From contig DASXRG010000037.1 in NCBI GenBank assembly GCA_036506735.1, positions 1,450-65,449 of the forward strand: DNA of 64,000 nt, written 5' to 3'. A program made the translations under genes and the position numbers. Positions within the stretch are counted from its first letter, which is position 1; every line of letters begins with the position of its first letter. Shown piece after piece: positions 42,381-64,000 of this stretch. The notes under the pieces are model-generated. The model was not told the DNA's origin, did no database searches, and saw nothing but the letters and a program-made list of their open reading frames with translations. The stretch comes from Candidatus Binatia bacterium (lineage in GTDB: Bacteria; Desulfobacterota; Binatia; UBA9968).

Positions 42381-42394
42381 AAAGGAATTCTGAA

Positions 42395-44839: not shown

Positions 44840-45337
44840 ATGCAGGATGAGTTGAACACGTCGCAGACCGTCGCGCTCTCGCTGACGATCAACGGCAAGC
44901 CTTGGAGCGGCGAAGTGACGGTCGAAGAGACACTGCTCGAGTTTCTCAGAAGCCGGCTCGGCCTCACCGGCACCAAACGCTCGTGCGAGTCGCAGGTGTG
45001 CGGCGCCTGCACGGTGCTGGTGAATCAACGGCCGATCAGCTCGTGCAGCTATCTCGCCTTCGAGGCGCGCGGCAAGTCGGTGCTGACGATCGAAGGGCTC
45101 GCGGACGGCGAGCAGCTCGATCCGCTTCAGGCGGCTTTCATCCGCAATCTCGGCGGCCAGTGCGGTTACTGCACGCCGGGGCAGATCATGGCGGCCAAAG
45201 GACTGCTGCTGGAGAATCCCGCGCCGACGAGAGAAGAGATCGCCCATTGGCTCCGCGGCAACATCTGCCGCTGCGGCTGCTATCCGGGGATCGCCGCGGC
45301 GATTTTGGAGGCGAGTAAAACCACGTACGAGCGATGA
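44840..45337 (+). CDS. (2Fe-2S)-binding small subunit of molybdenum hydroxylase (CoxS/XdhC-small type)
   Basis: Cys clusters CESQVCGACTV, CGYCTPG and CRCGCY. 165 aa. Confidence 0.92.
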   Translation: MQDELNTSQTVALSLTINGKPWSGEVTVEETLLEFLRSRLGLTGTKRSCESQVCGACTVLVNQRPISSCSYLAFEARGKSVLTIEGLADGEQLDPLQAAFIRNLGGQCGYCTPGQIMAAKGLLLENPAPTREEIAHWLRGNICRCGCYPGIAAAILEASKTTYER

Positions 45338-46323
45338 AAAAAGGCTCCAAGACAAAACGACGCCACGGCGCCGTCATTCTGTTAGTCATTTTGCTCACTG
45401 GCGGGTTTGATTGCCTCGCCGCCGGCGCAGACAAGGTCCGCTTGTCCATCTCGAGCGTGGATATGTCCTTTCTCACCGGCGCCGTGGCGCTCAAGAAGGG
45501 TTTTTTCAAAGAGGAAGGGCTGGAGGCGGAAGTCATTCGAATGAACGCCAATGTCTCGATCACCGCGCTCGCCACCGGCGATATCGACTATACGATGATC
45601 TTCGGATCGGTGGTGCGCGCGGCGGTCCGCGGTTTGCCGGTGAAAGTCGTCGCCAGCTTCATGGACAGCTCCACGCATACGTTGGTCGCGCGCGCCGAGT
45701 TCAAGTCGGTCAAGGAGCTGAAAGGACGAACTCTCGGGGTCAGCTCGTTCGGCGCCACCGCGGACGTGGTCGCGCGAATGATGTTCAGAGCTTCCGGTAT
45801 CGATCCCGAGAAGGAGATAAAAATCATCGCCCTGGGCTCGGACCAGGCGCGCTTCGCCGCGTTGAAGGAGGGCGTCGTGGACGTCGCGGTCATCTCCCCG
45901 CCGGCGGACATCGAAGGAAAAAAGCTGGGCTTCAACGTCGTCGCCCGCGCCTATGAGGTGTTCAGCCTGCCGTTCATCGGCCTCGGCGCCAACCATAAAA
46001 AAATCAAAGAAAGGCCCGACGAGATCAAGCGCGCGCTCAAGGCGCTGATCCGAAGCAATCGCTACATTACCGCCAACCGGGACGGAGCCATTCAGGTATT
46101 GATGGAGTGGGGCAAGACGGATCGGGAAAGCGCCGCGACTTCCTACGACGCCACGGTCAAAGTATTCAACGTGGATGGAAGCATTCCGGAAAGCGGCCTG
46201 AAGCTGGTGATCGAGCAGGCGAAGCAGGCGTTGAAGGTCGAGCGGCCGGTTTCGTTCGACGAAGTGGCCGACTTGGGACCGTTGCGTGAAGCGCAAAAGG
46301 AATTGGGAGTCAAAGGACGATGA
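45334..46323 (+). CDS. periplasmic solute-binding protein, NMT1/THI5-like
   Basis: ATGA overlap with the 2Fe-2S gene. Has a signal peptide. Very similar to the next gene. Confidence 0.8.
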   Translation: MKKGSKTKRRHGAVILLVILLTGGFDCLAAGADKVRLSISSVDMSFLTGAVALKKGFFKEEGLEAEVIRMNANVSITALATGDIDYTMIFGSVVRAAVRGLPVKVVASFMDSSTHTLVARAEFKSVKELKGRTLGVSSFGATADVVARMMFRASGIDPEKEIKIIALGSDQARFAALKEGVVDVAVISPPADIEGKKLGFNVVARAYEVFSLPFIGLGANHKKIKERPDEIKRALKALIRSNRYITANRDGAIQVLMEWGKTDRESAATSYDATVKVFNVDGSIPESGLKLVIEQAKQALKVERPVSFDEVADLGPLREAQKELGVKGR

Positions 46324-47297
46324 GTTTATTCAAAGCGGGCGCGCGCAAATGGTTTGTTTCGGCGGCGGCGGTATTATTGCTCTGTGATTCCGCCCTTGCC
46401 GCGGACAAGATCCGGGTCTCGATCTCGAGCCTCGACGTGGCGTTTCTCACCGCGGGCGTGGCGCTGAAAAGAGGCTTCTTCAAAGAAGAAGGATTCGAGG
46501 CGGAGCTCATTCGTATGAACGCGAACGTGTCCGTCACGGCGCTCTCCACCGGCGACGTCGACTACACGATGATTTTCGGATCGGTAGTGCGCGCGGCGAT
46601 CCGCGGTTTGCCCATGAAAGTCGTCGCCAGTTTCCTCGACAGCTCGACGCACACGCTCATCGCCAGGCCCGAATATAAATCGGTCAAGGATTTACGGGGA
46701 AAAACTTTAGCGGTGAGCTCTTTCGGCGCGACTTCGGACGTCGCCGCCAGGATGATGTTTCAAAGATCGGGAATCGATCCGGAAAAAGAGCTCAAGATCA
46801 TCGCGCTCGGCTCCGACCGCGCACGTTTCGGCGCGCTGAAGGAAGGCATCGTCGACGTGGCGGTGATCTCCCCGCCGGCCGACGTCGAGGGGAAAAAGAT
46901 GGGCTTCAACGTGCTCGCCCGCGCCTACGAGCTTTTCACCCTTCCCTTCGTCGGTCTGGGCGCCAACACAAAAAAAATCAAAGAAAGGCCGGACGAAATA
47001 AAGCGGGTCCTCAAGGCTCTGATCAGGGCAAATCGTTACATCACGGCCAATAGAGACGGAACGATTCAGATCCTGGCCGAATGGGGCAGAACCGACCGCG
47101 AGAGCGCCGCGGCTTCCTACGACGGCACGGTTAAAGTCTTCAACGCCGACGGCAGCATTCCGGAAAGTGGACTCAAGCTGGTCATCGATCAGGCGAAACA
47201 GGCGCTGAAGGTCGATCAGCCGGTTGCGCCGGATCAGGTCGCCGACTTGGCACCGCTGCGCGAAGCGCAAAAAGAGCTGGGGATCAAGGGAAGATAA
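46320..47297 (+). CDS. periplasmic solute-binding protein, NMT1/THI5-like (tandem duplicate)
   Basis: ATGA overlap with the previous gene. Long near-identical protein blocks, e.g. MIFGSVVRAA(V/I)RGLP(V/M)KVVASF. Confidence 0.8.
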   Translation: MSLFKAGARKWFVSAAAVLLLCDSALAADKIRVSISSLDVAFLTAGVALKRGFFKEEGFEAELIRMNANVSVTALSTGDVDYTMIFGSVVRAAIRGLPMKVVASFLDSSTHTLIARPEYKSVKDLRGKTLAVSSFGATSDVAARMMFQRSGIDPEKELKIIALGSDRARFGALKEGIVDVAVISPPADVEGKKMGFNVLARAYELFTLPFVGLGANTKKIKERPDEIKRVLKALIRANRYITANRDGTIQILAEWGRTDRESAAASYDGTVKVFNADGSIPESGLKLVIDQAKQALKVDQPVAPDQVADLAPLREAQKELGIKGR

Positions 47298-48640: not shown

Positions 48641-49621
48641 ATGAAGCTGAAGCTGCCGTTTAAATTTCTCGTGGTGCTTTTTGTCGCGGTCCTGGCGGGC
48701 CAAGCGGGAGCCGAAAAGGTGCGCGTGGCGATGCCCGATTTCAGCATGTCGCTGATCGCATTCATCGTCGCCAAAGAAAAGCGCTTCTATCAGGAGGAAG
48801 GATTGGAAGTGGAGCTGATCAAGATGAGCGCCCCGGTGGCGAATCTCGCCTTGATTGCCGGGAACGTGGAATTCGGCGCGGCGGGCGCGGCCGCGATCCC
48901 ATCAGTGGTGCGCGGCGCGCCGCTCCAATTTCTCTTCCATACGTATCAGCGCCCGCTCTACTGGCTCTACTCCCTGCCCGACATTCAAAGCGTCCAGGCG
49001 CTCAGGGGAAAAAGAGTCGGCGTCTCGGGGATCGGCAGCGGCCCGGACTTGCTTCTCCGCGACGTCTTGAGAAGATACGGCGTGGATGCGGGCCGCGAGC
49101 TTACCATCATGGCGCTCGGCGCCGGGACGGCGCGATTCATGGCGATGAAAGCCGGATCGGTGGAAGCCGCCGTGCTGTCGCCGCCGTCCAATTTCATGGC
49201 CGAGGAAGCGGGATACCGGGAGTTGCTGGCGTTTGTGAACGAGGATCTTGTCGAGCTTCAATCCGCCGTGGTCGTCAGGGAAGGGATGTCTCAATCGAAT
49301 CCCGCTCTGGTCGAAAAATTCGTTCGCGGCACGCTCAAAGGATTTTTCTATTCACGCGACAACCGCGCGGGCACGATCAATATTCTAGCCAAGGTTCAAG
49401 GCGGCAAGCCGGATCTCGCCGTCAAGACGTACGACGCCTCCCGGCCGGCCATGACACCGGACGGGACCGTAAGCCAGGAATTGCAGCGACAGACGTTGGA
49501 ACAAGCGGCTAAACGCCTTGACCTCAAGGAAGTTCCTCCATTGCGGAAGGTTTTCGATTATTCGACCGCTCAAAGAATCCGCGCCCAACTGACCGCGCAG
49601 GGATGGAACCCGAAGGATTAA
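48641..49621 (+). CDS. periplasmic solute-binding protein, NMT1/THI5-like
   Basis: Signal peptide ends AGAEK. Paralogue of 33839..34810. Confidence 0.8.
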   Translation: MKLKLPFKFLVVLFVAVLAGQAGAEKVRVAMPDFSMSLIAFIVAKEKRFYQEEGLEVELIKMSAPVANLALIAGNVEFGAAGAAAIPSVVRGAPLQFLFHTYQRPLYWLYSLPDIQSVQALRGKRVGVSGIGSGPDLLLRDVLRRYGVDAGRELTIMALGAGTARFMAMKAGSVEAAVLSPPSNFMAEEAGYRELLAFVNEDLVELQSAVVVREGMSQSNPALVEKFVRGTLKGFFYSRDNRAGTINILAKVQGGKPDLAVKTYDASRPAMTPDGTVSQELQRQTLEQAAKRLDLKEVPPLRKVFDYSTAQRIRAQLTAQGWNPKD

Positions 49622-50765: not shown

Positions 50766-50996
50766 ATGGTTTACCTTAGATCCCGTGTGCTGCTCCTTGT
50801 GCTTGCGTGGGTTATGGCTTCGAGCCCAGCTTACGCCCAGAGCTCCAAGAAGTTGATCCTGGGTCTTGCGAGCAGAATCGACACGCTTTACGTCACCAAG
50901 AAAACCGGCGCCTTTACGCGCAACGGCCTGGAGGTCGATCTGGTTCTGTTTCAAGGCGGAACGCAGGCGTTACAGGGACGAGAGCGGCTTCATTGA
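50766..50996 (+). pseudogene. N-terminal remnant of an NMT1-like SBP gene
   Basis: The 76-aa ORF is a signal peptide plus KKLILGL...YVTKKTGAFTRNGLEVDLVLFQGGTQALQ. This aligns with the first ~70 residues of 57440..58420 and then stops. No RBS. Confidence 0.55.
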
Positions 50997-51028
50997 CCGG
51001 CTCTACAAGAAAAACTGAAAAAACAGAA

Positions 51029-51970
51029 ATGATGCTGCGCTGGATAATTGGCATTCTGTTGTTGCTCTATCCGATCACCACGGGCGCGGCGGAGAGAGTC
51101 CGCTATGCCTATCCGGCGAAGAGCCTCAACTACCTGCCGCTTTTTTTAGGAAAGGAAAAAGGGATTTACGCGGGCGAGGGGATCGATTTGGAGCTGGTCC
51201 TGGTCACGTCGCGCATCCAGGTGACGGCGCTGACGACCGGCGACCTCGAGTTCTCCGGCGCGCAGAGCCAAGTCTCCGGCGCCGCGGCGATCGGATTTCC
51301 CGTAAAAGTCGTCGGCTTCTTGACCGTCAAGCCGACCTTCTGGCTGATCGCGCGACCGGAGATCCGCGCAATCCCCGACCTTAAGGGCAAGGTCATCGGT
51401 ATTACCGCGATCGGTTCTTCCACCGATACGCTGGCGCGCTACATTGTCCGAAAGTACGGCCTGGTTCCAGATAAAGAAGTCGCGCTTTTTGCGACGGGAA
51501 CCACATCCAACATTCTTGCCGCGCTGAACGGGGGCTCGGTGCAGGCCGGCATGCTGTCGCCGCCGTTTCACGCGATGGCGCAGCAGATGGGATTTCACAT
51601 ACTGGCTTACTTAGGCGATCACGTCGAGCAATCGCTCTCCGGCGTGGGAACTTCGGAGAAGATGCTGCGCGAGCGGCCGGAGACGGTCAAGAAAGTCCTG
51701 CGCGCGACCTTGAAGAGCCTCCGCTACATCCGGCAGAACCGCGAACAGACCGTGCAGCACGTTCTCCGTGAATGGAAAGTCGAGCGGCCGCTGGCGGAAG
51801 AGCTTTACGCGTCGATGCTGCCGGCTTTTTCTCCCGACGGCGGTATGAACGAAAAAGGCATCCGTGACGCGTTGGAGCGCGAGATGGGCCGGGTGGACAA
51901 GAAAGAAGAGATCCCGCTTTCGCGGGTAGTGGATTTGCGCTTGCTAAAGGAAGTACAAAAGGAGCTGTAA
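51029..51970 (+). CDS. periplasmic solute-binding protein, NMT1/THI5-like
   Basis: ORF 50807..51970 trimmed to MMLRWIIGILLLLYPITTGAAE. Confidence 0.78.
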   Translation: MMLRWIIGILLLLYPITTGAAERVRYAYPAKSLNYLPLFLGKEKGIYAGEGIDLELVLVTSRIQVTALTTGDLEFSGAQSQVSGAAAIGFPVKVVGFLTVKPTFWLIARPEIRAIPDLKGKVIGITAIGSSTDTLARYIVRKYGLVPDKEVALFATGTTSNILAALNGGSVQAGMLSPPFHAMAQQMGFHILAYLGDHVEQSLSGVGTSEKMLRERPETVKKVLRATLKSLRYIRQNREQTVQHVLREWKVERPLAEELYASMLPAFSPDGGMNEKGIRDALEREMGRVDKKEEIPLSRVVDLRLLKEVQKEL

Positions 51971-51975
51971 AAAGG

Positions 51976-52935
51976 ATGGCCAAGCGGATTACATTCGCCG
52001 GCGGAGATTACGACCGCACGCACGCGTTGATCGAAGGCAGCATCAAACCAGAAGGGCTCGAGCTCGACTGGAAAATTCTCCCTTACCACGACATCTGGAC
52101 GCGGATGCTCAACCGCTACGAGTTCGACGCATCGGAGCTATCGCTCTCGTCCTACCTGATTGCGCGCACGATGGGGAAACCGCTGATCGCGCTGCCGGTC
52201 TTTCCGGCGCGCGCCTTTCGCCATTCCTGCATCTTCGTCAACGCGCGGAGCGACATCCGCGAGCCGCGCGACTTGATGGGTAAAAAAGTCGGCCTGGCGG
52301 AGTTCCAGCAGACTGCGACCGTGTGGGTGAGAGGCGCGTTGCAGCACGACTACGGCGTCGATTTAGACAAGATCCATTGGTTCACCTGGTCGAAGATGCG
52401 AATGGAAATCGAGATGCCGCGGCGCTACGACGTGAGTCAGATTCCTTCCGACAAGGCGCCTGACGAAATGCTGGCGCGCGGCGAACTGGATGCGATGATC
52501 TGCGCGAATCTGTTTCCGTTGCTGCTGAAGGGCCATCCGCAGATCCGCCGTCTGTTCGAGGACTATCCGGAAGTCGAAGCCGCTTACTTCAAAAAGACCG
52601 GGATCTTCCCGATCATGCACACGGTCGCCATGCGAGAGGAGCTATGGAAAGAGTCGCCGTGGATGGCGCTCAGCCTCTTCAAGGCTTTTCAACAGGCGAA
52701 GGCCGAGGCCTACGCTAGACTCAACGATCTCTCGCCGTATAAGATCAGTCTCGTCTGGTTCCGCGAGCCGGTGAAGCAACAGAAAGAAATTCTCGGCGAC
52801 GATCCCTGGCCGTATGGTCTGGCGAAAAACCGCCACGTGGTGGAAACGTTGATGGGATATCTCTACGAGCAAGGACTGGCGCGGAAGAAACTCCCGGTCG
52901 AGGAGCTGTTCGCGCCGAATATGTTGGAGCTTTGA
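51976..52935 (+). CDS. cytoplasmic SBP-fold protein, 4,5-dihydroxyphthalate decarboxylase-like
   Basis: No signal peptide. The N-terminus ITFAGGDYDRTHALIEGSIKPEGLEL...FDASELSLSSY resembles the PhtD-type decarboxylase family as I recall it. Confidence 0.55.
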   Translation: MAKRITFAGGDYDRTHALIEGSIKPEGLELDWKILPYHDIWTRMLNRYEFDASELSLSSYLIARTMGKPLIALPVFPARAFRHSCIFVNARSDIREPRDLMGKKVGLAEFQQTATVWVRGALQHDYGVDLDKIHWFTWSKMRMEIEMPRRYDVSQIPSDKAPDEMLARGELDAMICANLFPLLLKGHPQIRRLFEDYPEVEAAYFKKTGIFPIMHTVAMREELWKESPWMALSLFKAFQQAKAEAYARLNDLSPYKISLVWFREPVKQQKEILGDDPWPYGLAKNRHVVETLMGYLYEQGLARKKLPVEELFAPNMLEL

Positions 52936-52944: not shown

Positions 52945-55170
52945 ATGACAACGGACAAGTTCAAGATCATCGGGACGTCCGTCAACCGCGTCGACGGAGT
53001 CGATAAAGTCACCGGCCAGGCGAAATACGTCGGCGACATCGCAGTGCCCGGAATGGCCGAGGGAAAATTTCTCCGCAGCCCGTATGCCCACGCGCGCATC
53101 GTCTCGATCGACACGGCGGAGGCCGAGCGGCTTCCCGGCGTCGTTACGGTTTTGACCGCGAAAGATCTCGGCGACATTCATTTATATTTGGGCAGAAAAG
53201 AGCGGAAAGACCAGCCGATCATCGCCGTCGATCGCGCGCTCTACGCCGGCCAGCCGGTCGCGGCGGTCGCGGCGGTCGATCCGTTCACCGCCGAGGAAGC
53301 GCTGAGCAAGATTCACGTCGAGTACGAAGAATTGCCTGCCGTAATCTCCGTGCCGGAGGCGATCGCCGACAGCGCGCCGCAGATTCATTCCTTCGCGGCG
53401 AAAAATATCTGCTTTCAGGACGAGCTGATAAAAGGAGACGTGGCAAAGGGCTTCGCCGAGTCCGAGGAGATCGTCGAGGATACCTTCGAATTCCCGATGG
53501 TCTATCATTATTCGATGGAACCGCACACGACCATCGCCAAAATAGACTCGGAAGGCATCACTGTCTGGTCTTCGAACACGCACCCGTTCGGCATTCGCCA
53601 GGAGCTCGCCGAGATCTTCGGCTGCTCGCTCGCGAAGGTGCGCGTGATGGTGCCTTTGGTCGGCGGCGCTTACGGCAGCAAGTCCGGCTGCAAGATCGAG
53701 CCGCTGGTCGTCGCGCTGGCGCGCAAGGCGGGAACCGCCGTCAGAGTGAGGCAGAGCGTGTCCGAGGCGATGATGACCGTGCGCCGCCACTCCGTCACCT
53801 GCAAGGTCAAGACCGGAGTAAAAAAAGACGGCACCCTGGTGGCTAAACAGGCCGAGATTTACCTCAACACCGGCGCTTTCGCCGAGACCGGACCGATCGT
53901 GACCGGCCGGACACTGACGCGCATCCTGGGGCCGTATCGAATTCCTCACCTCAAGGTGAAAGCTTACTGCGTCTATACCAACACGGTCTCCGCCGCGTCT
54001 TTTCGCTCCATCGGCGGGCCGCAGACCGCCTGGGCGACGGAATCGCAGATGGACATCATCGCGCAGAAGCTCGGCCTCGACCCGGTCGAGTTGCGCCGCA
54101 AAAATCTGCTGCGCAAAGGAGAGGAGCTGAAGCCCAAAGGCAATCCGCTCGACGCCGATCTCTTCACAGCGCTCGACAGGGTCGCGCGAAAGATGGAATG
54201 GGACGGGCCGGCGCCGGCGAGCGGACGCGGCAGAGGCATCGCGTTCGGCGTCACGGATCCGGGCGCGCCGCTGGCCTCGACGGCGACGGTGCACGTGCTG
54301 TCGGACGGCAGCGTGGTTCTTCTCGCCGGCACCGTGGAATGCGGGCAGGGCGCGCGGACGGTCATGAGCCAGATCGTCGCGGAAGAGCTGTTGGTGCCGC
54401 TCAAATGCGTGACCATGCGCGCGCCCGACACCGCTTACACGCCTTTCGACCGCTCCACCGGCTCGAGCCGCTCCACGACCGTGATGGGAAAAGCGGTGCA
54501 GCTCGCGGCGCGGGACGCGCGCCGGCAACTGCTGGATTTGGCCGCGGAGCAGTTCGAGGCGCCGCTGGAAGCGATTACTCTGCAAGACGGAAGCGCCGCC
54601 GCCGGAAACAAGACGGCGCCTTACGGCGATCTCATTCGCCGCCACTTCGCGATGCAGGGAGGGGAGATCGTCGGCTGCGGCTACGCGCACGGCGGCATGG
54701 CCCCCAAGCCTGCGAACCCGCTCTTCTGGGAGGTCGGCATCGGCGCGGTCGAAGTGGAGGTGGACCGGGAGACCGGAAAGATCCAGGTCACGAAATACAT
54801 CTCCGCCGCCGACGCCGGCAAAGCGCTGCACCCGATTCAGTGCGAGGGCCAGGACGAGGGCTCCGCGATGATGGGCGTCGGCCACACTTTCTACGAGTCG
54901 GTCATTTACGACGGCGGGCAGATCGTCAACGCGAGCCTCGTCGATTACAAGGTTCCGACTTTCGACGACGTGCCCGGCGAATTCGACACGATCCTGATCG
55001 AAGACCAAAACGGGCCCGGACCCTATGGCGCCAAGGGCATGGGCGAGGGCGGCATCATTCCGGTCGCGCCGGCGATCGCCAACGCGCTCGCCTGGTCGAC
55101 GGGCGCGAGGATCAAAGAGCTTCCGCTCACCCCGGAGAGAGTGTGGCGCGCGCTCAAGAAACGGTCCTGA
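52945..55170 (+). CDS. xanthine dehydrogenase-family molybdopterin-binding subunit 3
   Basis: 741 aa. Contains VNRVDGVDKVTG, PLVGGAYGSKSG and AKGMGEGG. Confidence 0.9.
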   Translation: MTTDKFKIIGTSVNRVDGVDKVTGQAKYVGDIAVPGMAEGKFLRSPYAHARIVSIDTAEAERLPGVVTVLTAKDLGDIHLYLGRKERKDQPIIAVDRALYAGQPVAAVAAVDPFTAEEALSKIHVEYEELPAVISVPEAIADSAPQIHSFAAKNICFQDELIKGDVAKGFAESEEIVEDTFEFPMVYHYSMEPHTTIAKIDSEGITVWSSNTHPFGIRQELAEIFGCSLAKVRVMVPLVGGAYGSKSGCKIEPLVVALARKAGTAVRVRQSVSEAMMTVRRHSVTCKVKTGVKKDGTLVAKQAEIYLNTGAFAETGPIVTGRTLTRILGPYRIPHLKVKAYCVYTNTVSAASFRSIGGPQTAWATESQMDIIAQKLGLDPVELRRKNLLRKGEELKPKGNPLDADLFTALDRVARKMEWDGPAPASGRGRGIAFGVTDPGAPLASTATVHVLSDGSVVLLAGTVECGQGARTVMSQIVAEELLVPLKCVTMRAPDTAYTPFDRSTGSSRSTTVMGKAVQLAARDARRQLLDLAAEQFEAPLEAITLQDGSAAAGNKTAPYGDLIRRHFAMQGGEIVGCGYAHGGMAPKPANPLFWEVGIGAVEVEVDRETGKIQVTKYISAADAGKALHPIQCEGQDEGSAMMGVGHTFYESVIYDGGQIVNASLVDYKVPTFDDVPGEFDTILIEDQNGPGPYGAKGMGEGGIIPVAPAIANALAWSTGARIKELPLTPERVWRALKKRS

Positions 55171-55204: not shown

Positions 55205-56266
55205 ATGAAGCATAAACTTCGAAGCCTAGGATGGTTGATCCTCTGGTTGGCCGCGCTGCCCGGCACCGGACACTCCGACGTCGGCGACCTTCTCACGCAA
55301 GTCAATCGGAAGCCGGCGGAGGAGCGACAGCAGTTGTTGTTGGACAACGCCAAAAAAGAAGGCGGCTTGACTCTATATACCGCGACCAACGTCCGCGACA
55401 CTCAGGACGTGATCGCCGGATTCAACAAACATTATCCTTTTTTGAAGGTGAGCTCTTTGAGCCTGGGCGGTCCGGGCGTGCTCAACAAGATCACGACGGA
55501 GTACCGGGCGGGAGTGCACAACGCCGACGTGGTCGTGCTGACCGGAAATAACGCCCTGGAGCTGATCGACAAGAAAATCGTTGCTATCTACAGGAGTCCC
55601 ATGATTCCTTTCGTGCGCAAAGGCTTTGTCGACGAGGAGGGATTGTGGCCCGGCGTTTACGCGATCGGATATACCATCATCTATAATACGAAGAGAGTCG
55701 CTCCCAGAGAGATCCCGAAGCAGTACGAGGACCTGCTGAATCCCAGGTGGAAGGGCAACATGCTCATGGATGCCGAGGCCCACGATCTGCTCGCCGGCCT
55801 GATCGATCTTTGGGGCGAAAAAAAGGCGACTCATTTCCTGCAACAGCTCGCCGATGTGCAGGGGGTTCGGTTCGCGCGGCAGTCGCATACCTTCATGACC
55901 CAGCTCGTCGCCGCGGGAGAACACGATCTGATCGTCGATGGCTACGTGCACAATGCCGTCAAGATGAAATCCGAGGGCGCGCCGATCGATTTTGTTTCTT
56001 TGAATCCGACCATCGTGAGGACGCCGTCCGTCATCGCGATTTCGTCGCATGCCCCGCACCCTTACGCCGCGGCGCTCTTCGAGGACTATCATCTCTCGAA
56101 AGAGGCGAGCGAGATCATGGTGAAGAACCAGGGGAGATGGGCGCCGCGCAAGGACGTGAAATGGACGGTCGAGCCTGAAACCGACGTGCACGTCGTGCCC
56201 ATGTTCGTATGGGGAAGAAAAAACCGGGAGCTGGTCGAATTTTTCAACAAGCTGGCGAAACGCTAG
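55205..56266 (+). CDS. extracellular solute-binding protein, family 1 (iron(III)/AfuA-like fold)
   Basis: ORF 55025..56266 trimmed to MKHKLRSLGWLILWLAALPG (GGAGAA upstream). Paralogue of 18865..19974. Confidence 0.72.
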   Translation: MKHKLRSLGWLILWLAALPGTGHSDVGDLLTQVNRKPAEERQQLLLDNAKKEGGLTLYTATNVRDTQDVIAGFNKHYPFLKVSSLSLGGPGVLNKITTEYRAGVHNADVVVLTGNNALELIDKKIVAIYRSPMIPFVRKGFVDEEGLWPGVYAIGYTIIYNTKRVAPREIPKQYEDLLNPRWKGNMLMDAEAHDLLAGLIDLWGEKKATHFLQQLADVQGVRFARQSHTFMTQLVAAGEHDLIVDGYVHNAVKMKSEGAPIDFVSLNPTIVRTPSVIAISSHAPHPYAAALFEDYHLSKEASEIMVKNQGRWAPRKDVKWTVEPETDVHVVPMFVWGRKNRELVEFFNKLAKR

Positions 56267-56322
56267 AGCGCCGGTCAAGCAGCGTAGCTTTTCCGCGCGG
56301 AGCCGAGGAGGCGTACTTCAAG

Positions 56323-56820
56323 ATGAAGGTCGAAAAGGCAGAATTGGTCGTGCAGGGAATGAAAGAAGCCGGCATTGATTTCGCCGTCGGCGTTCCCGAC
56401 GCGCAGTTTATCGAAGTCTACAAGATGGTGGATGAAGATCCCGACATTTACTACGTGGGCGCCGCCAATGAAGCCGAAGCGGCTGGCATCGGCTTGGGCG
56501 CCTGGTTCGGCGGAAAAAAGCCGGCCCTGATTATCGCCACCTCCGGATTGTTGGTGGCGACGTATCATCTGGCGCGCATCAATCTTCTCCACGAAGTGCC
56601 GCTTTTGATCGTCATCCCGTACCGCGGCGACATCGGCGATCCGCGCTGGCTGGGACTCTACAAAAAAACCACCGAGCCCGCTCTGCAAGCCATGGATATT
56701 CCCTACCGGGTGGTGCGCCGTCCCCAAGACACGATCAGGACCATCAAAGAATCGAACGAGAGCGCCAGGGCCTGGCTAAAACCGGTGGCGGTGCTTTTGA
56801 CCGAGGAGGCTCTATGGTAA
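56323..56820 (+). CDS. thiamine-diphosphate enzyme N-terminal subunit (ComD/alpha-like), second copy
   Basis: ORF 56209..56820 trimmed to ATG 56323 (GAGGAGG upstream). Contains ANEAEAAGIGLGAWFGGKKPALIIATSGL. Confidence 0.75.
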   Translation: MKVEKAELVVQGMKEAGIDFAVGVPDAQFIEVYKMVDEDPDIYYVGAANEAEAAGIGLGAWFGGKKPALIIATSGLLVATYHLARINLLHEVPLLIVIPYRGDIGDPRWLGLYKKTTEPALQAMDIPYRVVRRPQDTIRTIKESNESARAWLKPVAVLLTEEALW

Positions 56821-57440
56821 CTCGATTCGCATTGCTGAAGGCGCTGTCGTCGGTTCTATCGGACGACGTGCTGGTCGTCGCCAGCATCGGCAACAACAGC
56901 GGCTTCTGGGGGCAGTTGAAGGAGAGAGAATCGAACTTGTTTCATATTACGCTCGGCATGTGCACTCCCACGGCGCTGGGTCTTGCGCTGGCGTTGCCGA
57001 ACCGGAAAGTCGTCGCGCTCGACGCCGACGGGAATCTCATCTTGAACCTCGGAGTGTTGGGGACGGTCGCCAACGAGAATCCCCGAAACTTGACCGTGAT
57101 CGTCATGGATAATCGCAATTACCTGGGGAGCCACAAGAACGAGCCGGGGATGCCGACGGCGACGGCCGGTAAGATGAACCTGGAGGGCGTGGCCAAGGCG
57201 AGCGGGATACGCAGCGCGAGCACCGCAAGAAACGTGGGCCAGTTTCACAAAAGCGTAAAGGCCGCGCTGGCAAGAAAGGGTCCGCACCTCATCGTCGCGA
57301 AGATTGCGTCTTTGGACAACGACCGGCCGGCCAGAGCCCGGCGGCTCCCGGACCCGCGCGAAAACAAGTATCGATTTGCTGCCTACATCGAAAGAACGGA
57401 ACGAGCGGAGATTCTCGGCAGCGGACTTGGAGGAGGATAA
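56814..57440 (+). CDS. thiamine-diphosphate enzyme C-terminal subunit (ComE/beta-like), second copy
   Basis: Its ATG lies inside the last codons of the alpha gene (ATGGTAA). ThDP motif LDADGNLILNLGVLGTVA...VIVMDNRNY. Confidence 0.75.
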   Translation: MVTRFALLKALSSVLSDDVLVVASIGNNSGFWGQLKERESNLFHITLGMCTPTALGLALALPNRKVVALDADGNLILNLGVLGTVANENPRNLTVIVMDNRNYLGSHKNEPGMPTATAGKMNLEGVAKASGIRSASTARNVGQFHKSVKAALARKGPHLIVAKIASLDNDRPARARRLPDPRENKYRFAAYIERTERAEILGSGLGGG

Positions 57441-58420
57441 TGAGTGCAGTGCTGGGCCTCTTCAAGCGAGTGTCGCTCTGCTCGCTGACGCTTTTGTTTC
57501 TGCTGTCGTCCGTTAGAGCGGCAGAATTGAAGAAGATCACTTTCGGTTATTCCAGCATCGGCGGGATGGCGACCGGCGTATGGATGACAAAAGAGGTCGG
57601 GGCGTTTGAGAAGTATGGAATTCAAGCGGATCTCATCTATATATCCTCCGGCCCCGTCGTCGTGCAGGCTCTGATCGGAGGCGACCTTCAGGGAGGCAGT
57701 GGCGCCAGCAACGCGGTGATCAACGCGATCTTGAACGGCGCGCAGATCGTAGCGGTGGGCGGCACCGCCAACCGGCCCTATCACAGACTCTGGGTGCAGC
57801 CGGAGATCAACCGCCTCGAGGATTTGCGCGGCAAGACTCTCGGCGTCACGCGCTTCGGCTCTATCACGGACAACCTGACGAGAATTTTGCTCAGGCGGAA
57901 TGGCTTGGAAAACGCGGTGACGGTTCGCCAGATGGGCGGGACGCCGGAGGTCGGCGCCGCGTTCCAGCAGAAGGCGATCGCGGGCGCGGTGACTTCCGAT
58001 CTCCGCGTCGGCGCCCACGTGCCGGCGAAGATCCTGCTGAACTTCGTCGACCTGGGTATTCCCTACTCGATGAATATGATCGCGGTCTCGCGCGATTACT
58101 ACCGGCGCAATCCGGAAACCGTGGAAGGGATGGTCAGGGCCTACACCGAGGGAGTGGCGGCGATGAACGATCAGAAGGACCGCGCGCTCAAGGTGATTGC
58201 CAAGTACGCGCGCCTGAGCGATCCCAAACAGATCGAAGAGCAATATAAAGACTCCGTAACTTATCTGGAGCGCGTCCCCCGCGTCGAGCCCGAGGCGGCG
58301 GCCACGATCCTCGAGTTCATGGGCAAGAAGGGGATTCCGCTGGAGACTTTTTTCGATAATTCGATAGTGGACCGGATGGTACGTGAGGGGTTCATCGACA
58401 AGCTCTATAAGAAAAGGTAA
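57440..58420 (+). CDS. periplasmic solute-binding protein, NMT1/THI5-like
   Basis: TAATG overlap with the previous gene. Signal peptide ends VRAAE. Confidence 0.8.
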   Translation: MSAVLGLFKRVSLCSLTLLFLLSSVRAAELKKITFGYSSIGGMATGVWMTKEVGAFEKYGIQADLIYISSGPVVVQALIGGDLQGGSGASNAVINAILNGAQIVAVGGTANRPYHRLWVQPEINRLEDLRGKTLGVTRFGSITDNLTRILLRRNGLENAVTVRQMGGTPEVGAAFQQKAIAGAVTSDLRVGAHVPAKILLNFVDLGIPYSMNMIAVSRDYYRRNPETVEGMVRAYTEGVAAMNDQKDRALKVIAKYARLSDPKQIEEQYKDSVTYLERVPRVEPEAAATILEFMGKKGIPLETFFDNSIVDRMVREGFIDKLYKKR

Positions 58421-58432: not shown

Positions 58433-59167
58433 ATGGCGGAGATCGTCGCGCGGAAGCTGACGCAGGAGGAGGGCGGCATTCCCGGCTACATCGCCCATCC
58501 GGCGCGCGCCGAGCGGGGACCGGGATTATTGTTGATCCACCAACACTCCGGTCTGACCGGCTACTTGAAGACCGAGGCCTACAAGTTCGCGAAGCTCGGT
58601 TACTGCACCGTGATCCCTAACCTGTATCATTTGCTCGGCTATCCCGCGGAGACTCATATCCACACGGGGACCGAGATCCAGAACAAAACTCCCGACGGAG
58701 ATTTCGTGCGCGTCATCGACGCGGGCTGGCGATTTCTTATCGGCCGCGACGACGTCGATCCTGCGCGGGCCGGGGCGATCGGCTACTGCATGGGCGGCCG
58801 GATCGGCATTCACTTCGTGGCCGCCACTCCGCAAGTGCGAGCGTTCGTCGCCTACTACCCGTCCGTGAGAAACGAGCAGCCGACGCGTATACGGCCGCGC
58901 CACCCTTGCGACGCGGCGCGCGAGATCAAATGCCCTTCGATGGTGTTCTACGGCGGCCATGATTCCACCAGCACGATAGACGTGCAGCAGCGCGTCATGG
59001 AGAGTTTTCTCGCCAACGGCCAACCGCTTGAATGGCATTTTTTTCCGCGTGGAAATCACGGCTTCGCTTCGACGGAATCGGACGGCTACCAGCCTGAGCT
59101 CGCGGAGCTGGTCTGGCCGCTGGTGGTAGATTTTTTCAACCGCGAATTCAGGCAGCCGGCCCGCTAA
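58433..59167 (+). CDS. dienelactone hydrolase-family protein
   Basis: Nucleophile motif GYCMGG, alpha/beta-hydrolase layout and an HGF near the C-terminus. Confidence 0.82.
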   Translation: MAEIVARKLTQEEGGIPGYIAHPARAERGPGLLLIHQHSGLTGYLKTEAYKFAKLGYCTVIPNLYHLLGYPAETHIHTGTEIQNKTPDGDFVRVIDAGWRFLIGRDDVDPARAGAIGYCMGGRIGIHFVAATPQVRAFVAYYPSVRNEQPTRIRPRHPCDAAREIKCPSMVFYGGHDSTSTIDVQQRVMESFLANGQPLEWHFFPRGNHGFASTESDGYQPELAELVWPLVVDFFNREFRQPAR

Positions 59168-59230: not shown

Positions 59231-59569
59231 ATGGAAAAGCCGAGAATAAGACATATCGCGATCAACGTTCAGGACCGGGACAAGGAGGCGGAATACTACA
59301 AGCGCGTCTTCGGCATGGAAGAAAAAACGCGCGGGCCGGGCGGCACGATCTATCTTTCCGACGGCCACGTCGACGTCGCGCTGATCAGCACGACCAAGTA
59401 TCCCTGGGGCATCAATCATTTCGGCTTCAAAGTCGACAGCGTCAAGGCCGTCGAGCAGACCGCCGACACGAAAGCGGAAGACAACACGTTCGGCGCGATC
59501 GCGGAAAGCTGGATCAAAGACCCGGAAGGCAATCGGGTGGATGTCTCCGAGCACGGCTGGCCGATATAA
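59231..59569 (+). CDS. VOC-family (glyoxalase/bleomycin-resistance/dioxygenase fold) protein
   Basis: 112 aa with AGGAGGG upstream. Contains IRHIAINV and INHFGFKV beta-alpha-beta-beta-beta modules. Confidence 0.8.
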   Translation: MEKPRIRHIAINVQDRDKEAEYYKRVFGMEEKTRGPGGTIYLSDGHVDVALISTTKYPWGINHFGFKVDSVKAVEQTADTKAEDNTFGAIAESWIKDPEGNRVDVSEHGWPI

Positions 59570-59730: not shown

Positions 59731-60438
59731 ATGGACGAAAACGACTGGCGTTCGGCGCTCGGCGAGCTGGCGCGCGAGACGATGGCATCGCCGGAGGTAG
59801 AAAAATATTTTTCCGTGCCGATCACCAGGGCGCGGGCGCAGATCATCTTGCAGCAGTTGTCGCTTTACGTGCGCCACCGGCGCGACTGCTGGGCCTACGT
59901 CTCGGGCAACTGCCCCGTGCTGGCGGTGAAGCAGAAAATTCTCGGCCACGAGTACGAGGAGATGATCCGTGATTCACACTCCGAGCACGGCCATCTGGAT
60001 CTGATCATCCGACAGGGAAAAGCGATCGGCCTCACGGCGAAAGATATTCTCGAGACCAAGCCGGTTCCCTCGACGATGGCTACCTTATATAGCTGGGGCT
60101 GGATGACCAAGGCGAAGAGCTGGCTCGAAGGGTTGGGCGCGATGACAATCACCGAGTGGAATCAGGACGACCGCCTGCTCGGCGACCTGGGCGGCGGCCA
60201 CGCGTACAAGATGGGCCAGCGCTGGGTCGATCACCTGGGTCTCACCTGGGACGACCTGCCCAATTGGAAGGCGCACCGCGAAGCCGACAAGGAGCACACC
60301 GACATGTTTCTTCCCGTGCTCGCCGAATTCGCGGTCGGCGAAAAAGAGGCGATCGTTTTACAAGCGGCGCGCGAATCCGAAGAGCTTTACCGCACGTACC
60401 AGGCGGGGATAACCGCCGCGATGGAAGCGATCGACTAG
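59731..60438 (+). CDS. haem-oxygenase-fold protein, PqqC/CADD-like, cassette 1
   Basis: 235 aa with no signal peptide. Motifs GHEYEE, TITEW and HREADKEHTDMF. Conserved RHRRDCWAYVSGNCP. Confidence 0.7.
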   Translation: MDENDWRSALGELARETMASPEVEKYFSVPITRARAQIILQQLSLYVRHRRDCWAYVSGNCPVLAVKQKILGHEYEEMIRDSHSEHGHLDLIIRQGKAIGLTAKDILETKPVPSTMATLYSWGWMTKAKSWLEGLGAMTITEWNQDDRLLGDLGGGHAYKMGQRWVDHLGLTWDDLPNWKAHREADKEHTDMFLPVLAEFAVGEKEAIVLQAARESEELYRTYQAGITAAMEAID

Positions 60439-60445
60439 GAAAGAA

Positions 60446-61441
60446 ATGCGCGTGCTGAACGGTTTCGTCAAAGCGTACCGGCGTCGTGCGGTGTTCATGA
60501 CCGCGCTCGTGATTATCGTTGCGGCGGCGGGACTTGAGGCCGCGGACGCGCCCAAAGAGAAAGTCACTTTCGGATGGGCCGCGGTCAGCCCGACGATGGC
60601 CGGCATCTGGATGGCGAAAGAGACCGGCGCATTCGAGCGAAACGGCCTCAACGCGGAACTGGTCTATATCAGCTCGGGCGCCGTCGTGATCCAGGCGCTC
60701 GTCGGCGGCAGCGTGACCGCGGCCTTGGGCGCGAGCAACGCGGTGGTTGCAGCGATCCTCAAGGGCGCGCCGATCGTCGCCGTCGGCAGCAACACGAGCC
60801 GTCCCGGCATGGTGTTGTGGGTGCAGCCCGAGATCAGCAAGCCGGAGCAGTTGCAGGGGAAGACGATGGCGATCACGCGCTACGGCTCCACCAGCGACTT
60901 TGTCACCCGATTGATCCTGAAAAAACTGAACCTCGACGGCAAAGTCGAGATCCGCCAGTTCGGCGGCGTCGTCGAGGCCGACGTCGGCTTCCGCGCGCGC
61001 CAGGCGGCGGGCCGCGTCGCGTCGCAGGCGCCCGACCCGCAGGCCAGGGCGCTGGTCGACGCCGGGGAGCTCGGCATTCCGTTTTCGATGAACCTGCTCG
61101 CGGTGAGCAACGAGTTTTACCGGAAGTCGCCGTCGGTCGTCGAGCGGGTCGTCAAATCCTACGTCGACGGCATTGCGGCGCTGAGAACTAACAAGCAACA
61201 GGCGCTGCGCGTCCTGGGAAAATACATGGGCCAGCGCGGCGGCGCGCCGGAGATGCACTACGATTTCGTCGTCAAGTATCTCGATCCGGTGCCGCGCGTC
61301 GATCCCGCGGCGGTCGATACCATTCTCGAAATGGTCGGCCACTCCGGGCCCGCGCCGGCCAAGCTCTTCGACAACGCGGTGATCGACAAGCTGCGCAGCG
61401 AAGGCTATTTCAATAAATTGTATCCCGCGGGGAGCCGCTGA
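60446..61441 (+). CDS. periplasmic solute-binding protein, NMT1/THI5-like, cassette 1
   Basis: Signal anchor AVFMTALVIIVAAAGLEAADA. Paralogue of 57440..58420 and 62174..63133. Confidence 0.8.
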   Translation: MRVLNGFVKAYRRRAVFMTALVIIVAAAGLEAADAPKEKVTFGWAAVSPTMAGIWMAKETGAFERNGLNAELVYISSGAVVIQALVGGSVTAALGASNAVVAAILKGAPIVAVGSNTSRPGMVLWVQPEISKPEQLQGKTMAITRYGSTSDFVTRLILKKLNLDGKVEIRQFGGVVEADVGFRARQAAGRVASQAPDPQARALVDAGELGIPFSMNLLAVSNEFYRKSPSVVERVVKSYVDGIAALRTNKQQALRVLGKYMGQRGGAPEMHYDFVVKYLDPVPRVDPAAVDTILEMVGHSGPAPAKLFDNAVIDKLRSEGYFNKLYPAGSR

Positions 61442-62151
61442 TGAACGAAGCCGGCTGGAAAGATATTTTAGGCCGGATGGTGCGCGACTATATTCGCTCG
61501 CCTGAATTGGAGCGTTATTTTTCCGTTCCCATGACGAAGCGGCGCGCCGCGGTCATGGTGACGCAGCAGAGCCTGTTCGTGCGCCACCGGCGCGACTGCT
61601 GGGCCTACGTCTCGGGCAACTGCCCGGTGCTCGCGATCAAGCAGAGAGTTCTGGAGCACGAGTACGACGAGATCATCCGCGACCAGTTTTCCGAGTACGG
61701 CCACCTGGCGCTGATCATCAAGCAGGGGCAGTCCGTCGGGCTTACGCCCGAGGAGATCATCGACGCCGAGCCGCTGCCGGCCACGCGCGCGACGCTCTAC
61801 GCCTGGGGCTGGATCACGAAGGAAAAAAGCTGGCTCGAAGGGCTCGCCGCGATGACGATCACCGAATGGTGCAACGACGACCGGCTGCTCGGCGATCTCG
61901 GCGGCGGCCAGTCCACGCGCATGGCGAAGCGCTGGATGGAGGACATGGGGTTTACCTGGAAAGAGATTCCCAATTTACAGGCGCACAGCCAGGCGGATGA
62001 AAAGCACAGCGATATGTTCGTGCCTTTTTTGGCCCAGTACGCGACCGGCGAAAAAGAGGCGCTCGCGCTGCGCGCGGCGAAGGAGTCGTTGGACCTGAAC
62101 GCGATGTACCGCGAGGGCATCGCCGAGGCGCAGGAGCGGCTGACGGCGTGA
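61441..62151 (+). CDS. haem-oxygenase-fold protein, PqqC/CADD-like, cassette 2
   Basis: TGATG overlap with the previous SBP gene. Motifs EHEYDE, TITEW and HSQADEKHSDMF. Confidence 0.7.
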   Translation: MNEAGWKDILGRMVRDYIRSPELERYFSVPMTKRRAAVMVTQQSLFVRHRRDCWAYVSGNCPVLAIKQRVLEHEYDEIIRDQFSEYGHLALIIKQGQSVGLTPEEIIDAEPLPATRATLYAWGWITKEKSWLEGLAAMTITEWCNDDRLLGDLGGGQSTRMAKRWMEDMGFTWKEIPNLQAHSQADEKHSDMFVPFLAQYATGEKEALALRAAKESLDLNAMYREGIAEAQERLTA

Positions 62152-62173
62152 CGACTCTTGGAAAGCACGGCCG

Positions 62174-63133
62174 ATGTCGCAGATGAAGCGATTCAGCTTG
62201 ATCCTGACGGTCTTCTCCGCAGTCGCATTCGCTGCGGGCAGATGCGTCGCGCAGCAGAAAGTTACCGTCGCGTACTCTGCCGTGAGCCCCATCATGGCCG
62301 GCGTATGGATGGCGAAAGAGATCGGCGCGTTCGAGAAATACGGACTCAAGGCGGACCTGGTCTATATCAGCTCGGGAGCGATCACGGTGCAGGCGATGGT
62401 CGGCGGCGATCTGCACATGACCGTCGCCGCAAGCAACGCGGTGATCAGCGCGATCTTGCACGGCGCGCCGCTGGTCGCGGTCGGCAGCGTGACGAACCGT
62501 CCGGCGATGAGCCTGTGGGTCCAACCTGACATCACCAAGCCGGAGCAGCTCCAGGGAAAAATTTTAGCGATCACGCGTGCGGGATCGACGACCCATTTCT
62601 TGACCCTGGCCGTCCTCGACAAGCTCGGGGTTCGGGATAAGGCGAAGCTCCAATCCTTCGGCGGCACCATCGAGGCCGATACCGCCTTTCGCGCGGGGCT
62701 CGTCGCGGGCCGCGTTGCGTCGGTCAAGCCTGCGCCGCAGGCTCATTCACTGATCGATCTGCCGAAGCTCGGAATTCCTTTCTCGATGGATTTCATCGCG
62801 GTCAAGACCGATTTCAATCGGACCGCTCCAAAAACCGTCGAAGCGATGTTGAAGGCCTATATGGAAGGCGTGACGGCTCTCAGGTTGAAGGATCAGGCCT
62901 ATAGAGTATTGGAAAAATATCTGCGCCGCCCGGCCGCGACCCTCGACGAGCCGTACGAGTATGCCGTCAAGTACCTCGAGCGCGAGCCGAGAGTCGATCC
63001 GGCCGTGGTTCAGACGGTTCTGGATTGGGAAAGTAAACCGGACGTGCCGGTAAGCAAGTTTTTCGACAACGGCATCGTCGATCGCCTGATCAAGGAAGGT
63101 TTTGTCGATAATCTCGTCAAAGGAGGACGTTAA
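62174..63133 (+). CDS. periplasmic solute-binding protein, NMT1/THI5-like, cassette 2
   Basis: Signal peptide ends CVAQQ. Confidence 0.8.
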   Translation: MSQMKRFSLILTVFSAVAFAAGRCVAQQKVTVAYSAVSPIMAGVWMAKEIGAFEKYGLKADLVYISSGAITVQAMVGGDLHMTVAASNAVISAILHGAPLVAVGSVTNRPAMSLWVQPDITKPEQLQGKILAITRAGSTTHFLTLAVLDKLGVRDKAKLQSFGGTIEADTAFRAGLVAGRVASVKPAPQAHSLIDLPKLGIPFSMDFIAVKTDFNRTAPKTVEAMLKAYMEGVTALRLKDQAYRVLEKYLRRPAATLDEPYEYAVKYLEREPRVDPAVVQTVLDWESKPDVPVSKFFDNGIVDRLIKEGFVDNLVKGGR

Positions 63134-63852
63134 TGGAGGTTTCAGCCTGGAGAGAGCGCGTCGGCGAGATGGTGCGGGAGCACATGCGCTCGCCCGAGCT
63201 CCAGCATTATTTCTCGGTCAAGATGACGCGGCCGAGGGCGCAGCTCATGCTCGTGCAGCTCGGGCTCTACATCCGCCATCGCCGCGACTGCTGGTCCAAC
63301 GTTTCGTCCAATTGTCCGGAGATGGCGGTGAAGCACAAGATCCTCGAGCACGAGATCGGCGAGGTGATCAAGGACCGCTATTCCGAGCACGGCCACCTGG
63401 ACCTGATCGTGCGCCAGGGGCGCGCCGTCGACCTCAGCACGGAAGACGTCCTGAACGCGAAACCGATCCCGACCACGCAAGCGACGCTCTACGCCTGGGC
63501 GTGGATGACGCGCGCGAAGAGCTGGATCGAGGGGCTGGCGGCGCTCACCGTTACGGAATGGACCAACGACGACCGGCTGCTCGGCGATCTCGGCGGCGGC
63601 CATTCGACACGGATGGCGCGGCGCTGGATGGACGATATGGGCCTCAAGTGGAAGGACCTCCCCAATTTCGAAGCCCACGCCGAAGCGGACGAAGAGCACA
63701 GCGATATGTTCCTGCCGTTTCTTTCCACCTTTGCCACGGGAGAGAAGGAGAAGATGGCGCTGCAGGCGGTGCAAGAATCGCTCGATCTGTTTGCGATCTA
63801 TCGCGAAGGCGTGGCGGTGGCGATGGAAAAACTGGAAGAAAGTAAAAAGTAA
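63133..63852 (+). CDS. haem-oxygenase-fold protein, PqqC/CADD-like, cassette 3
   Basis: TAATG overlap with the previous SBP gene. Motifs EHEIGE, TVTEW and HAEADEEHSDMF. Confidence 0.7.
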   Translation: MEVSAWRERVGEMVREHMRSPELQHYFSVKMTRPRAQLMLVQLGLYIRHRRDCWSNVSSNCPEMAVKHKILEHEIGEVIKDRYSEHGHLDLIVRQGRAVDLSTEDVLNAKPIPTTQATLYAWAWMTRAKSWIEGLAALTVTEWTNDDRLLGDLGGGHSTRMARRWMDDMGLKWKDLPNFEAHAEADEEHSDMFLPFLSTFATGEKEKMALQAVQESLDLFAIYREGVAVAMEKLEESKK

Positions 63853-63866
63853 AAAAGGAGCGAAAA

Positions 63867-64000
63867 ATGAGCTATTGGAAAGAAGCAAGAGAAGAGATCG
63901 ACGCGACCCTCAACCGGCACTTCGACACGCCGGAGTATAAAAGGCTGTTCGGCGTAAAAATCACGCCCGAGCGAAATAAAATTCTGAACCTGCACTACCC
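63867..64000 (+). CDS. 5' part of a further gene, possibly another haem-oxygenase-fold paralogue (truncated by window end)
   Basis: AAGGAG at 63855-63860, ATG at 63867. The open frame MSYWKEAREEIDATLNRHFDTPEYKRLFGVKITPERNKILNLHY resembles the SPE(V/L)E(K/R)YFSVP(I/M)T N-termini of the three genes upstream. Confidence 0.45.
   Translation, partial: MSYWKEAREEIDATLNRHFDTPEYKRLFGVKITPERNKILNLHY

Follow-up and report, generated by a model that had tools for sequence, protein, structure and literature searches.

The sulfonate operons ssuEADCB and tauABCD place the gene for a periplasmic binder beside that for an O2-dependent cytosolic oxygenase acting on the imported solute, TenA and ThiXYZ together make up a described salvage operon, and the Bug/TctC family of Bordetella is an expansion of orphan binding proteins. 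Here we describe a locus that resembles each of these systems in part, at the 3' end of a 64,000-nucleotide stretch (contig DASXRG010000037.1, hereafter the window) of a Candidatus Binatia metagenome-assembled genome (MAG). Its members are genes for heme-oxygenase-like enzymes (labelled E) and for putatively secreted NMT1-type binding proteins (labelled S), as follows:

57440-58420, + strand: S0, the third S-subfamily gene, with a start that overlaps the stop of the preceding beta gene of a thiamin diphosphate (TPP) enzyme
59731-60438, + strand: E1, 235 aa, putative dimetal oxidase, unpaired (PF14518 3.6e-10; orthogroup of 31 members, ~80% identity)
60446-61441, + strand: S1, 331 aa, SsuA/TauA-like binder (Pfam NMT1 5e-14), coupled to E2
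61441-62151, + strand: E2, 236 aa, putative dimetal oxidase, the partner downstream of S1
62174-63133, + strand: S2, 319 aa, NMT1-type binder (Pfam NMT1 4e-14), coupled to E3
63133-63852, + strand: E3, 239 aa, putative dimetal oxidase, the partner downstream of S2 (PF14518 2e-10, TENA_THI-4 1.5e-8)
63867-64000 (5' part), + strand: E4, 228 aa, a divergent E paralogue and not a binder, complete at L001:4421-5107 (L001 being a JGI metagenome contig, see below)

As in ssu and tau, a gene for an SsuA/TauA-family binder stands here beside that for a (putative) oxygenase, and TauA anion-binding elements are kept in the S proteins. Unlike in those operons, the E proteins are heme-oxygenase-like, rather than flavin-dependent (SsuD) or 2-oxoglutarate-dependent (TauD), the cluster is without permease or ATPase genes, the residues that bind taurine are replaced in S, and S-E modules are iterated, alongside unpaired E paralogues. 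With the Bug/TctC expansion the locus shares many paralogous periplasmic binder genes that lack adjoining membrane components, together with a Bordetella protein (PDB 3qsl) as the best PDB match of the S/NMT1 profile, but the binders belong to the NMT1/NitT-TauT family and lie systematically beside genes for cytosolic enzymes, to which S1 and S2 are translationally coupled. The E proteins are in turn similar to heme-oxygenase-like dimetal oxidases (HDOs) in their seven-helix fold, PF14518 assignment, 3-His/3-carboxylate pattern and HxxxDxxH motif on core helix 3; they differ in their RHRRDCW and HExxE signatures, in the extra invariant residues H73, E74 and E77, in their genomic setting (three to five old paralogues in an array that looks catabolic, and not a single gene within a natural-product cluster), and in the translational coupling of some copies to genes for secreted binders. 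The reading that we favour, at a probability of about one half, is that the array closes, at its 3' end, a conserved gene cluster for catabolism or nutrient scavenging that is essentially confined to Binatia, and in which S captures an anionic solute and the coupled E oxidises it after import.

A previous, sequence-only reading of the window had proposed three consecutive E-then-S pairs, and had asked how many cassettes might follow beyond position 64000. Whilst the open reading frames (ORFs) lie at the coordinates that it gave (E1, S1, E2, S2 and E3 all on the + strand, with a further open frame beginning at 63867), the pairing has to be revised. Contig L001 (10.4 kb), which differs from the window at 5/4554 nt of their overlap and runs past position 64000, carries the genes in the order E1 S1 E2 S2 E3 E4, followed by convergent genes, one for a 203-aa protein, one of the Amidohydro_2 family and one for a further NMT1 binder. 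Four E and two S genes thus make up the array, without further cassettes. E4 shares 33% identity with E2 (E 2e-34), whilst E1, E2 and E3 are 58-61% identical to one another and S1 and S2 51-53% (tblastn within the window). S0, which the previous reading did not list, is 45-47% identical to S1 and S2, so that members of the S subfamily share 45-53% identity among themselves compared with ~25% to the other NMT1 genes of the window. The stop/start overlaps of 1 nt reported previously, TGATG at 61441 (S1/E2) and TAATG at 63133 (S2/E3), are present, and translational coupling is supported at these S-to-E junctions. A promoter and terminator scan of L001 gave counts not above those of shuffled controls.

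The phase of the repeated unit emerges from a scan in which each GTDB species was represented by a single genome, and which yielded 73 related loci, nearly all from Binatia or from MAGs labelled 'Deltaproteobacteria', onto which reference proteins were mapped to obtain gene order. The usual order is Mo-hydroxylase - (PhnS-like binder) - TPP decarboxylase alpha/beta - S0 - dienelactone-hydrolase-family protein (DLH) - [S0'-E] - VOC - [S2-E] - E1 - S1 - E2 - (binders) - E4 - two Amidohydro_2 - VOC' - PhnS-like binder, with S0 syntenic in most loci. An S1-type gene lies upstream of 34/43 E2 orthologues, at a distance of -5 to +11 nt in 31/31 measured junctions; S2-type genes are mostly 5-15 nt from the E gene that follows, and E3-like orthogroups mostly have an S2- or S0'-type gene upstream. 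The gap from E1 to S1, by comparison, has a median of 154 nt, and neither E1 nor E4 is preceded by an S gene in any case, the gene upstream of E1 orthologues being another E gene or VOC. Since S-to-E spacing is tight and E1-to-S1 spacing wide, and since S precedes the E2/E3 clade only, it is S followed by E that forms the conserved unit, rather than the E-then-S cassette proposed earlier. Gene order differs among lineages: the window joins S2 of one orthogroup to an E3 whose orthogroup (c11) is elsewhere usually found between DLH and VOC. Bins assigned to Eisenbacteria, Chloroflexota, Verrucomicrobiia and Zixibacteria (L011, L035, L057, L065; P0065, P0089) also contain E2, S1 or E4 genes, 72-87% identical to those of Binatia, for which mis-binning seems more likely than horizontal transfer.

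The S-E pairing must nonetheless be weighed against a window in which about one quarter of the genes encode NMT1 binders lying beside cytosolic enzymes (Mo-hydroxylases, an M20 hydrolase, bicupins and the TPP decarboxylase among them). S/E adjacency might accordingly be a functionless by-product of the density of binder genes in Binatia, with the E paralogues and VOC acting on an endogenous or diffusible substrate, an explanation that we consider unlikely. The ~16 NMT1-type binders among the ~60 genes of the window (there are three more of other families) are in its favour, as is a lineage of complete Binatia chromosomes (L064-L075; L066:6187-11918), in which the order is TctC-like binder - VOC - E4 - gamma-glutamyltranspeptidase (GGT) - E - E1' - VOC' with no S-subfamily gene; some other genomes have E2 without S1. 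Chance proximity would not, however, readily account for S1-to-E2 spacing that is invariably short, for start/stop overlaps that are kept across 60-90% protein divergence, or for a dedicated S subfamily that tracks the E2/E3 clade and never precedes E1 or E4.

The assignment of the E proteins to the heme-oxygenase-like fold, made previously from the letters alone, is borne out by several approaches. Pfam searches returned Haem_oxygenas_2 (PF14518; E 2e-10 to 4e-11) plus TENA_THI-4. An AlphaFold2 (AF2) model of E2, computed on a 29-sequence alignment, is an all-helical bundle with a predicted local distance difference test score (pLDDT) of 93.1 and a predicted template-modelling (TM) score of 0.90. 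Its one low-confidence stretch, residues 79-81, falls inside the D81-H88 ligand segment; in HDOs the ligand-bearing core helix 3 is reported to be flexible (PMC13108848), and we liken the two by analogy only. Foldseek comparison of the E2 model with the PDB ranked CtCADD (TM 0.75-0.83), SSO2700, PqqC (0.81), Sden_3740, BesC, TenA, FlcD, UndA and HrmI, with a probability of 1.00 for CADD, BesC, UndA, FlcD and HrmI at TM 0.65-0.83, consistent with the seven-helix heme-oxygenase-like fold. No protein of the E family (0/212) has a hydrophobic, signal-peptide-like N-terminus, in agreement with the cytoplasmic location proposed before.

A candidate metal site can be traced in the same alignments. 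Profile alignment with the 4-aminobenzoate synthase 9pj4 places D81, H88, E142, H182, D186 and H189 of the E proteins opposite E, H, E, H, D and H, and H88, E142 and H182/D186/H189 match H88, E142 and H174/D178/H181 of CADD/PabS (hhalign and MAFFT, with the CADD sequence from 1rcw); E81, H88, E142, H174, D178 and H181 of CADD are what we take to be its metal ligands in 1RCW. The HxxxDxxH motif on core helix 3 has the spacing of the SznF ligands H311/D315/H318, and a 3-His/3-carboxylate set defines the superfamily (PMC7848743, PMC13108848). All six positions are 100% conserved in 209 E ORFs of five orthogroups, E4 included, and largely retained in distant representatives, so that the His/carboxylate constellation noted previously holds as a predicted site; H73, E74, E77, R50, R51, W54, W122 and W131 are likewise invariant in these ORFs. 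The shared motifs of the sequence-only reading are present in E1-E3, but the two-Cys block (RHRRDCWxxVSxNCP) is less conserved than it had supposed: only 70% of E1 orthologues have the second Cys, which E4 replaces by Ala, and the first is Ala in one orthogroup. E1' of L064-L075 has Ala in place of Cys53.

Among 1.84 billion cluster representatives (50% identity), a profile search found 468 at E<=1e-3 and 38 at E<=1e-30, and the E proteins, judged by these sequence matches, are a small discrete clade with RHRRDCW and HExxE signatures of its own. Its members are named 'iron-containing redox enzyme family protein' by NCBI and 'PQQ biosynthesis protein C' by JGI. E4 orthologues (P0121-P0240) are conserved as strongly as E2, have no precomputed Pfam match and are named 'hypothetical protein'. 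One protein of the representative library (P0270, 523 aa) contains two tandem distant E-like domains of FPHW...GNCP type, pointing to dimers as the working form in the wider family. The more distant fifth member that had been reported in the window is indeed a relative, but stands apart from the array:

38192-38944, - strand: F5, distant TenA/heme-oxygenase-like paralogue (TENA_THI-4 2.8e-9; tblastn match)

F5 has a deviant helix-3 motif, HxxxDxxxxH, and is divergently transcribed from the NMT1 binder gene at 39053-40042; its orthologues lie within ~10 kb of the E array in three of the loci (L013, L024, L033).

Because the superfamily encompasses enzymes of quite different chemistry, the match to CADD deserves attention. 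CADD sacrifices its Tyr27, next to Lys152, and has a radical-transfer chain (PMC9522330). The E proteins have CADD as their top structural match, the residue numbers of their ligand positions agree almost perfectly with its own, and their many invariant Trp/Tyr residues (W54, W122, W131 and Y120) are reminiscent of that chain, all of which would fit self-sacrificing synthases of CADD/PabS type, making p-aminobenzoate (pABA) or another metabolite from a residue of their own by radical hole-hopping, with the S genes as unrelated neighbours. We regard this as improbable: the NCBIfam CADD model (TIGR04305) scores the E proteins at 19-32 bits, compared with a cut-off of 200, and Tyr27 lies opposite Ser28 (Gly in E4) by both hhalign and MAFFT, and Lys152 opposite Asp152 or Trp165, these being low-confidence alignments (hhalign probability 53%). 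Moreover, four to five anciently diverged paralogues in a catabolic array, with tight S-to-E coupling, are not predicted for a single-turnover cofactor synthase.

Proximity to PqqC suggests a module for pyrroloquinoline quinone (PQQ), with an oxidase resembling PqqC (E) to complete or repair the cofactor, and a PqqT-like periplasmic binder (S) of PQQ, a precursor or an adduct. PqqC is close to the E2 model, lends its name to the JGI annotation, and is known as cofactor-free; the E proteins conserve predicted metal ligands, unlike PqqC, and reach 15 bits with the NCBIfam PqqC model (TIGR02111; cut-off 240). No pqq genes were present among the window ORFs scanned, nor any PqqA, PqqB, PqqD or PqqE family. 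On the binder side, PqqT, a periplasmic PQQ-binding protein (PMC11331073), is found among the structural neighbours of S1 (9b1u, TM 0.64-0.71), but only at about rank 30, and is absent from the sequence-level matches. We accordingly think a PQQ function highly improbable.

The S proteins are NMT1-type binding proteins, as previously proposed, according to Pfam (NMT1 and NMT1_2), structure prediction and Foldseek. The AF2 model of S1 (pLDDT 91.2) is a type II binding-protein fold preceded by a helix at the N-terminus (residues 2-29), and S0, S1, S2 and their orthologues display a hydrophobic N-terminal core and AxA-like sites ahead of a conserved mature start; by inspection and hydropathy these resemble signal peptides, again as proposed, and the proteins are putatively secreted. 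Foldseek neighbours of S1 are TauA (2.5e-17), 3qsl, ThiY (3ix1), Thi5, SsuA and PqqT. At the sequence level the PDB matches are SsuA and TauA (TauA alone for S2), and the S profile scores 3qsl, an uncharacterised Bordetella bronchiseptica 'putative exported protein', at 7e-23, TauA at 3.5e-14 and ThiY at 2.7e-7. SsuA/TauA scores in NCBIfam were all sub-threshold (SsuA_fam 60-96 bits, cut-off 163.5). A weak NCBIfam match of S1 to SaoX lies far below cut-off, and SaoX belongs to an unrelated selenoprotein-linked transporter system, so that identity was rejected. TauA and SsuA structures define the anion-binding backbone of TauA and its taurine-binding residues (PMC6906117); the S proteins retain the anion-binding SG, G and GST elements, and have Ser, Met and Asn in place of Gln30, Glu106 and Asp205, which suggests an oxyanion-bearing ligand other than taurine.

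These comparisons also bear on thiamin, to which the previous reading had alluded by invoking THI5, ThiY and TenA. The locus resembles ThiY-TenA salvage in combining an NMT1-type binder with a TenA/PqqC/heme-oxygenase-like bundle, and iterated thiamin-pyrimidine salvage, with S a ThiY-like formylaminopyrimidine binder and E a TenA-like aminopyrimidine hydrolase, would agree with the presence of ThiY and Thi5 among the S1 neighbours and with TENA_THI-4 scores just over gathering (23-35 bits for 22), though the latter model also covers PqqC and relatives and the match is marginal. The hydrolase TenA is not known to have a dimetal ligand set, whereas the E proteins have a full predicted one and gave no TenA-specific NCBIfam match, and the S profile favours 3qsl and TauA far above ThiY. 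Rfam searches of the window and L001 (gathering score), and of 55-64 kb (E<=1), returned neither a TPP riboswitch nor any other family, and no thiamin genes occur among the ~60 ORFs scanned. Thiamin salvage is thus very improbable, and the implied link is not supported.

The age of the paralogues was assessed by clustering 212 E ORFs and 99 S ORFs from the related loci. E1, E2, two E3-like groups and E4 form separate orthogroups, and the orthologues of each are 60-93% identical in other genomes; the E paralogues are therefore ancient, since each has orthologues of its own. Recent duplication, which the sequence-only reading had offered alongside gene conversion to explain a tract of identity between E1 and E2, is consequently not the origin of the array, whilst the exact identity and a local conversion both stand:

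59868-59915, + strand: gene-conversion tract, E1 copy, 48/48 identical to 61578-61625
61578-61625, + strand: gene-conversion tract, E2 copy, 48/48 identical to 59868-59915

The overall nucleotide identity of E1 and E2 is 68%. The corresponding residues in most genomes are AYVSGNCP in E1 orthologues and AH/ANVSANCP in E2 orthologues; in the lineage of the window (L001 and L004, with L003 more diverged) E2 has the E1-type residues, and exact identity extends over 45-48 nt. Since E2 of this lineage carries the E1-type AYVSGNCP, the tract represents a short E1-to-E2 gene conversion.

For the uptake and oxidation reading that we favour, the following sequence of events can be put forward. Exported S would bind a small oxyanion-bearing solute (a sulfonate, phosphonate or carboxylate) in the periplasm and hand it to a shared NitT/TauT-type ATP-binding cassette (ABC) importer encoded elsewhere in the genome; no ORF with Walker-A plus LSGGQ, i.e. 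an ABC ATPase, is present in the 64-kb window or in 75 loci (~1 Mb, estimated). E, whose production translational coupling would keep in step with that of S, would act in the cytosol as an Fe/Fe or Fe/Mn oxidase or oxygenase that activates O2 and oxidises the imported solute. The old paralogues (S0/S1/S2; E1-E4) would serve related substrates or successive steps, and the neighbouring VOC, dienelactone hydrolase, TPP decarboxylase and amidohydrolase proteins may process the products.

Several points weigh against this proposal. The shared importer is assumed, and the metal site of the E proteins is predicted from sequence alone, with an ambiguous first carboxylate, since D81 occupies the position in ungapped register and E77 in gapped register (opposite CADD E81). 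Binder genes are very dense in this genome, so some S/E adjacency is expected by chance. Coupling of S to E is, furthermore, not obligatory, because the deep Binatia lineage L064-L075 keeps three E paralogues and VOC without S genes, and E2 is present without S1 in a few genomes. A more specific and rather doubtful form of the proposal is that S-E modules use an HDO-type dimetal oxygenase in place of the flavin- and 2-oxoglutarate-dependent oxygenases of ssu, tau and phn, oxidising or cleaving organosulfonates, organophosphonates or similar solutes delivered by orphan binders. The syntenic relative of sulfopyruvate/phosphonopyruvate decarboxylase and the PhnS-like binders provide weak hints in this direction.

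Upstream of the array lie further members of the syntenic cluster:

56209-57440 (alpha 56209-56820, beta 56814-57440), + strand: two-subunit TPP decarboxylase (Pfam)
58433-59167, + strand: DLH (Pfam DLH 4e-34), with S0-DLH synteny in many loci
59231-59569, + strand: VOC, 112 aa, glyoxalase/dioxygenase superfamily (Pfam Glyoxalase 4.7e-8)

VOC adjoins E genes in 21/29 loci in which the array is >3 kb from both locus ends, S-less lineages included. The TPP decarboxylase is a distant relative of the sulfopyruvate and phosphonopyruvate decarboxylases, its NCBIfam matches being below cut-off. The longest ORF of its alpha subunit overlaps the end of a PhnS-like binder gene by 58 nt (56209-56266); with a Pfam match that begins only at residue 44, the subunit probably has its true start further downstream. 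Beyond E4, the convergent 203-aa gene (L001:5132-5743, - strand) has no Pfam or NCBIfam match. The closest relatives show the same synteny of this gene with Amidohydro_2, and the HDHAH and HEIH motifs of its product recall the metal site of a cupin.

The E and S genes are the 3' end of a 25-kb co-directional array of ~27 + strand genes (39053-64000), with gaps <=161 nt, several start/stop overlaps and no internal regulator gene. Three xanthine-dehydrogenase-family Mo subunits, below NCBIfam cut-offs for known enzymes, are encoded at 40039-45337 and 52945-55170, for which a single 2Fe-2S small subunit was found among the ORFs scanned. Examples of binder genes in the window are 2359-3273 (-), 11013-14529 (-), 33839-34810 (+), 39053-40042 (+), 45334-47297 (+), 48641-49621 (+) and 50807-52935 (+). 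The region 31927-34810 comprises a LysR gene, a luciferase-like (SsuD-family) monooxygenase on the - strand and a divergent NMT1 binder, a pairing similar to ssuA/ssuD. Elsewhere are tandem DUF885 genes (23646-27268; 597 and 617 aa) with ComEC, uvrC (16795-18639) and uvrB (3475-5514) nearby.

Both protein families are already known. A limited search of the literature on PF14518, on Binatia/Binatota binders and on HDO neighbourhoods found no account of the S-E pairing, and the RHRRDCW/HExxE subfamily, the multi-paralogue array and the conserved translational coupling to dedicated binders appear to be undescribed in the literature searched. Were the favoured reading incorrect, the locus would be one more uncharacterised paralogue array. 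Nevertheless, the E subfamily is compact and strongly conserved, in an apparent catabolic or uptake context in Binatia, and with two or three E paralogues each having a binder of its own, the ligand of the binder should equal the substrate of the enzyme. If the reading holds, the role of the superfamily would widen from secondary metabolism to nutrient acquisition, and the large sets of orphan binder genes in this uncultured lineage would in part be accounted for; in its sulfonate/phosphonate form, it would bring new chemistry to the superfamily, and this in a soil lineage that is abundant but uncultured.

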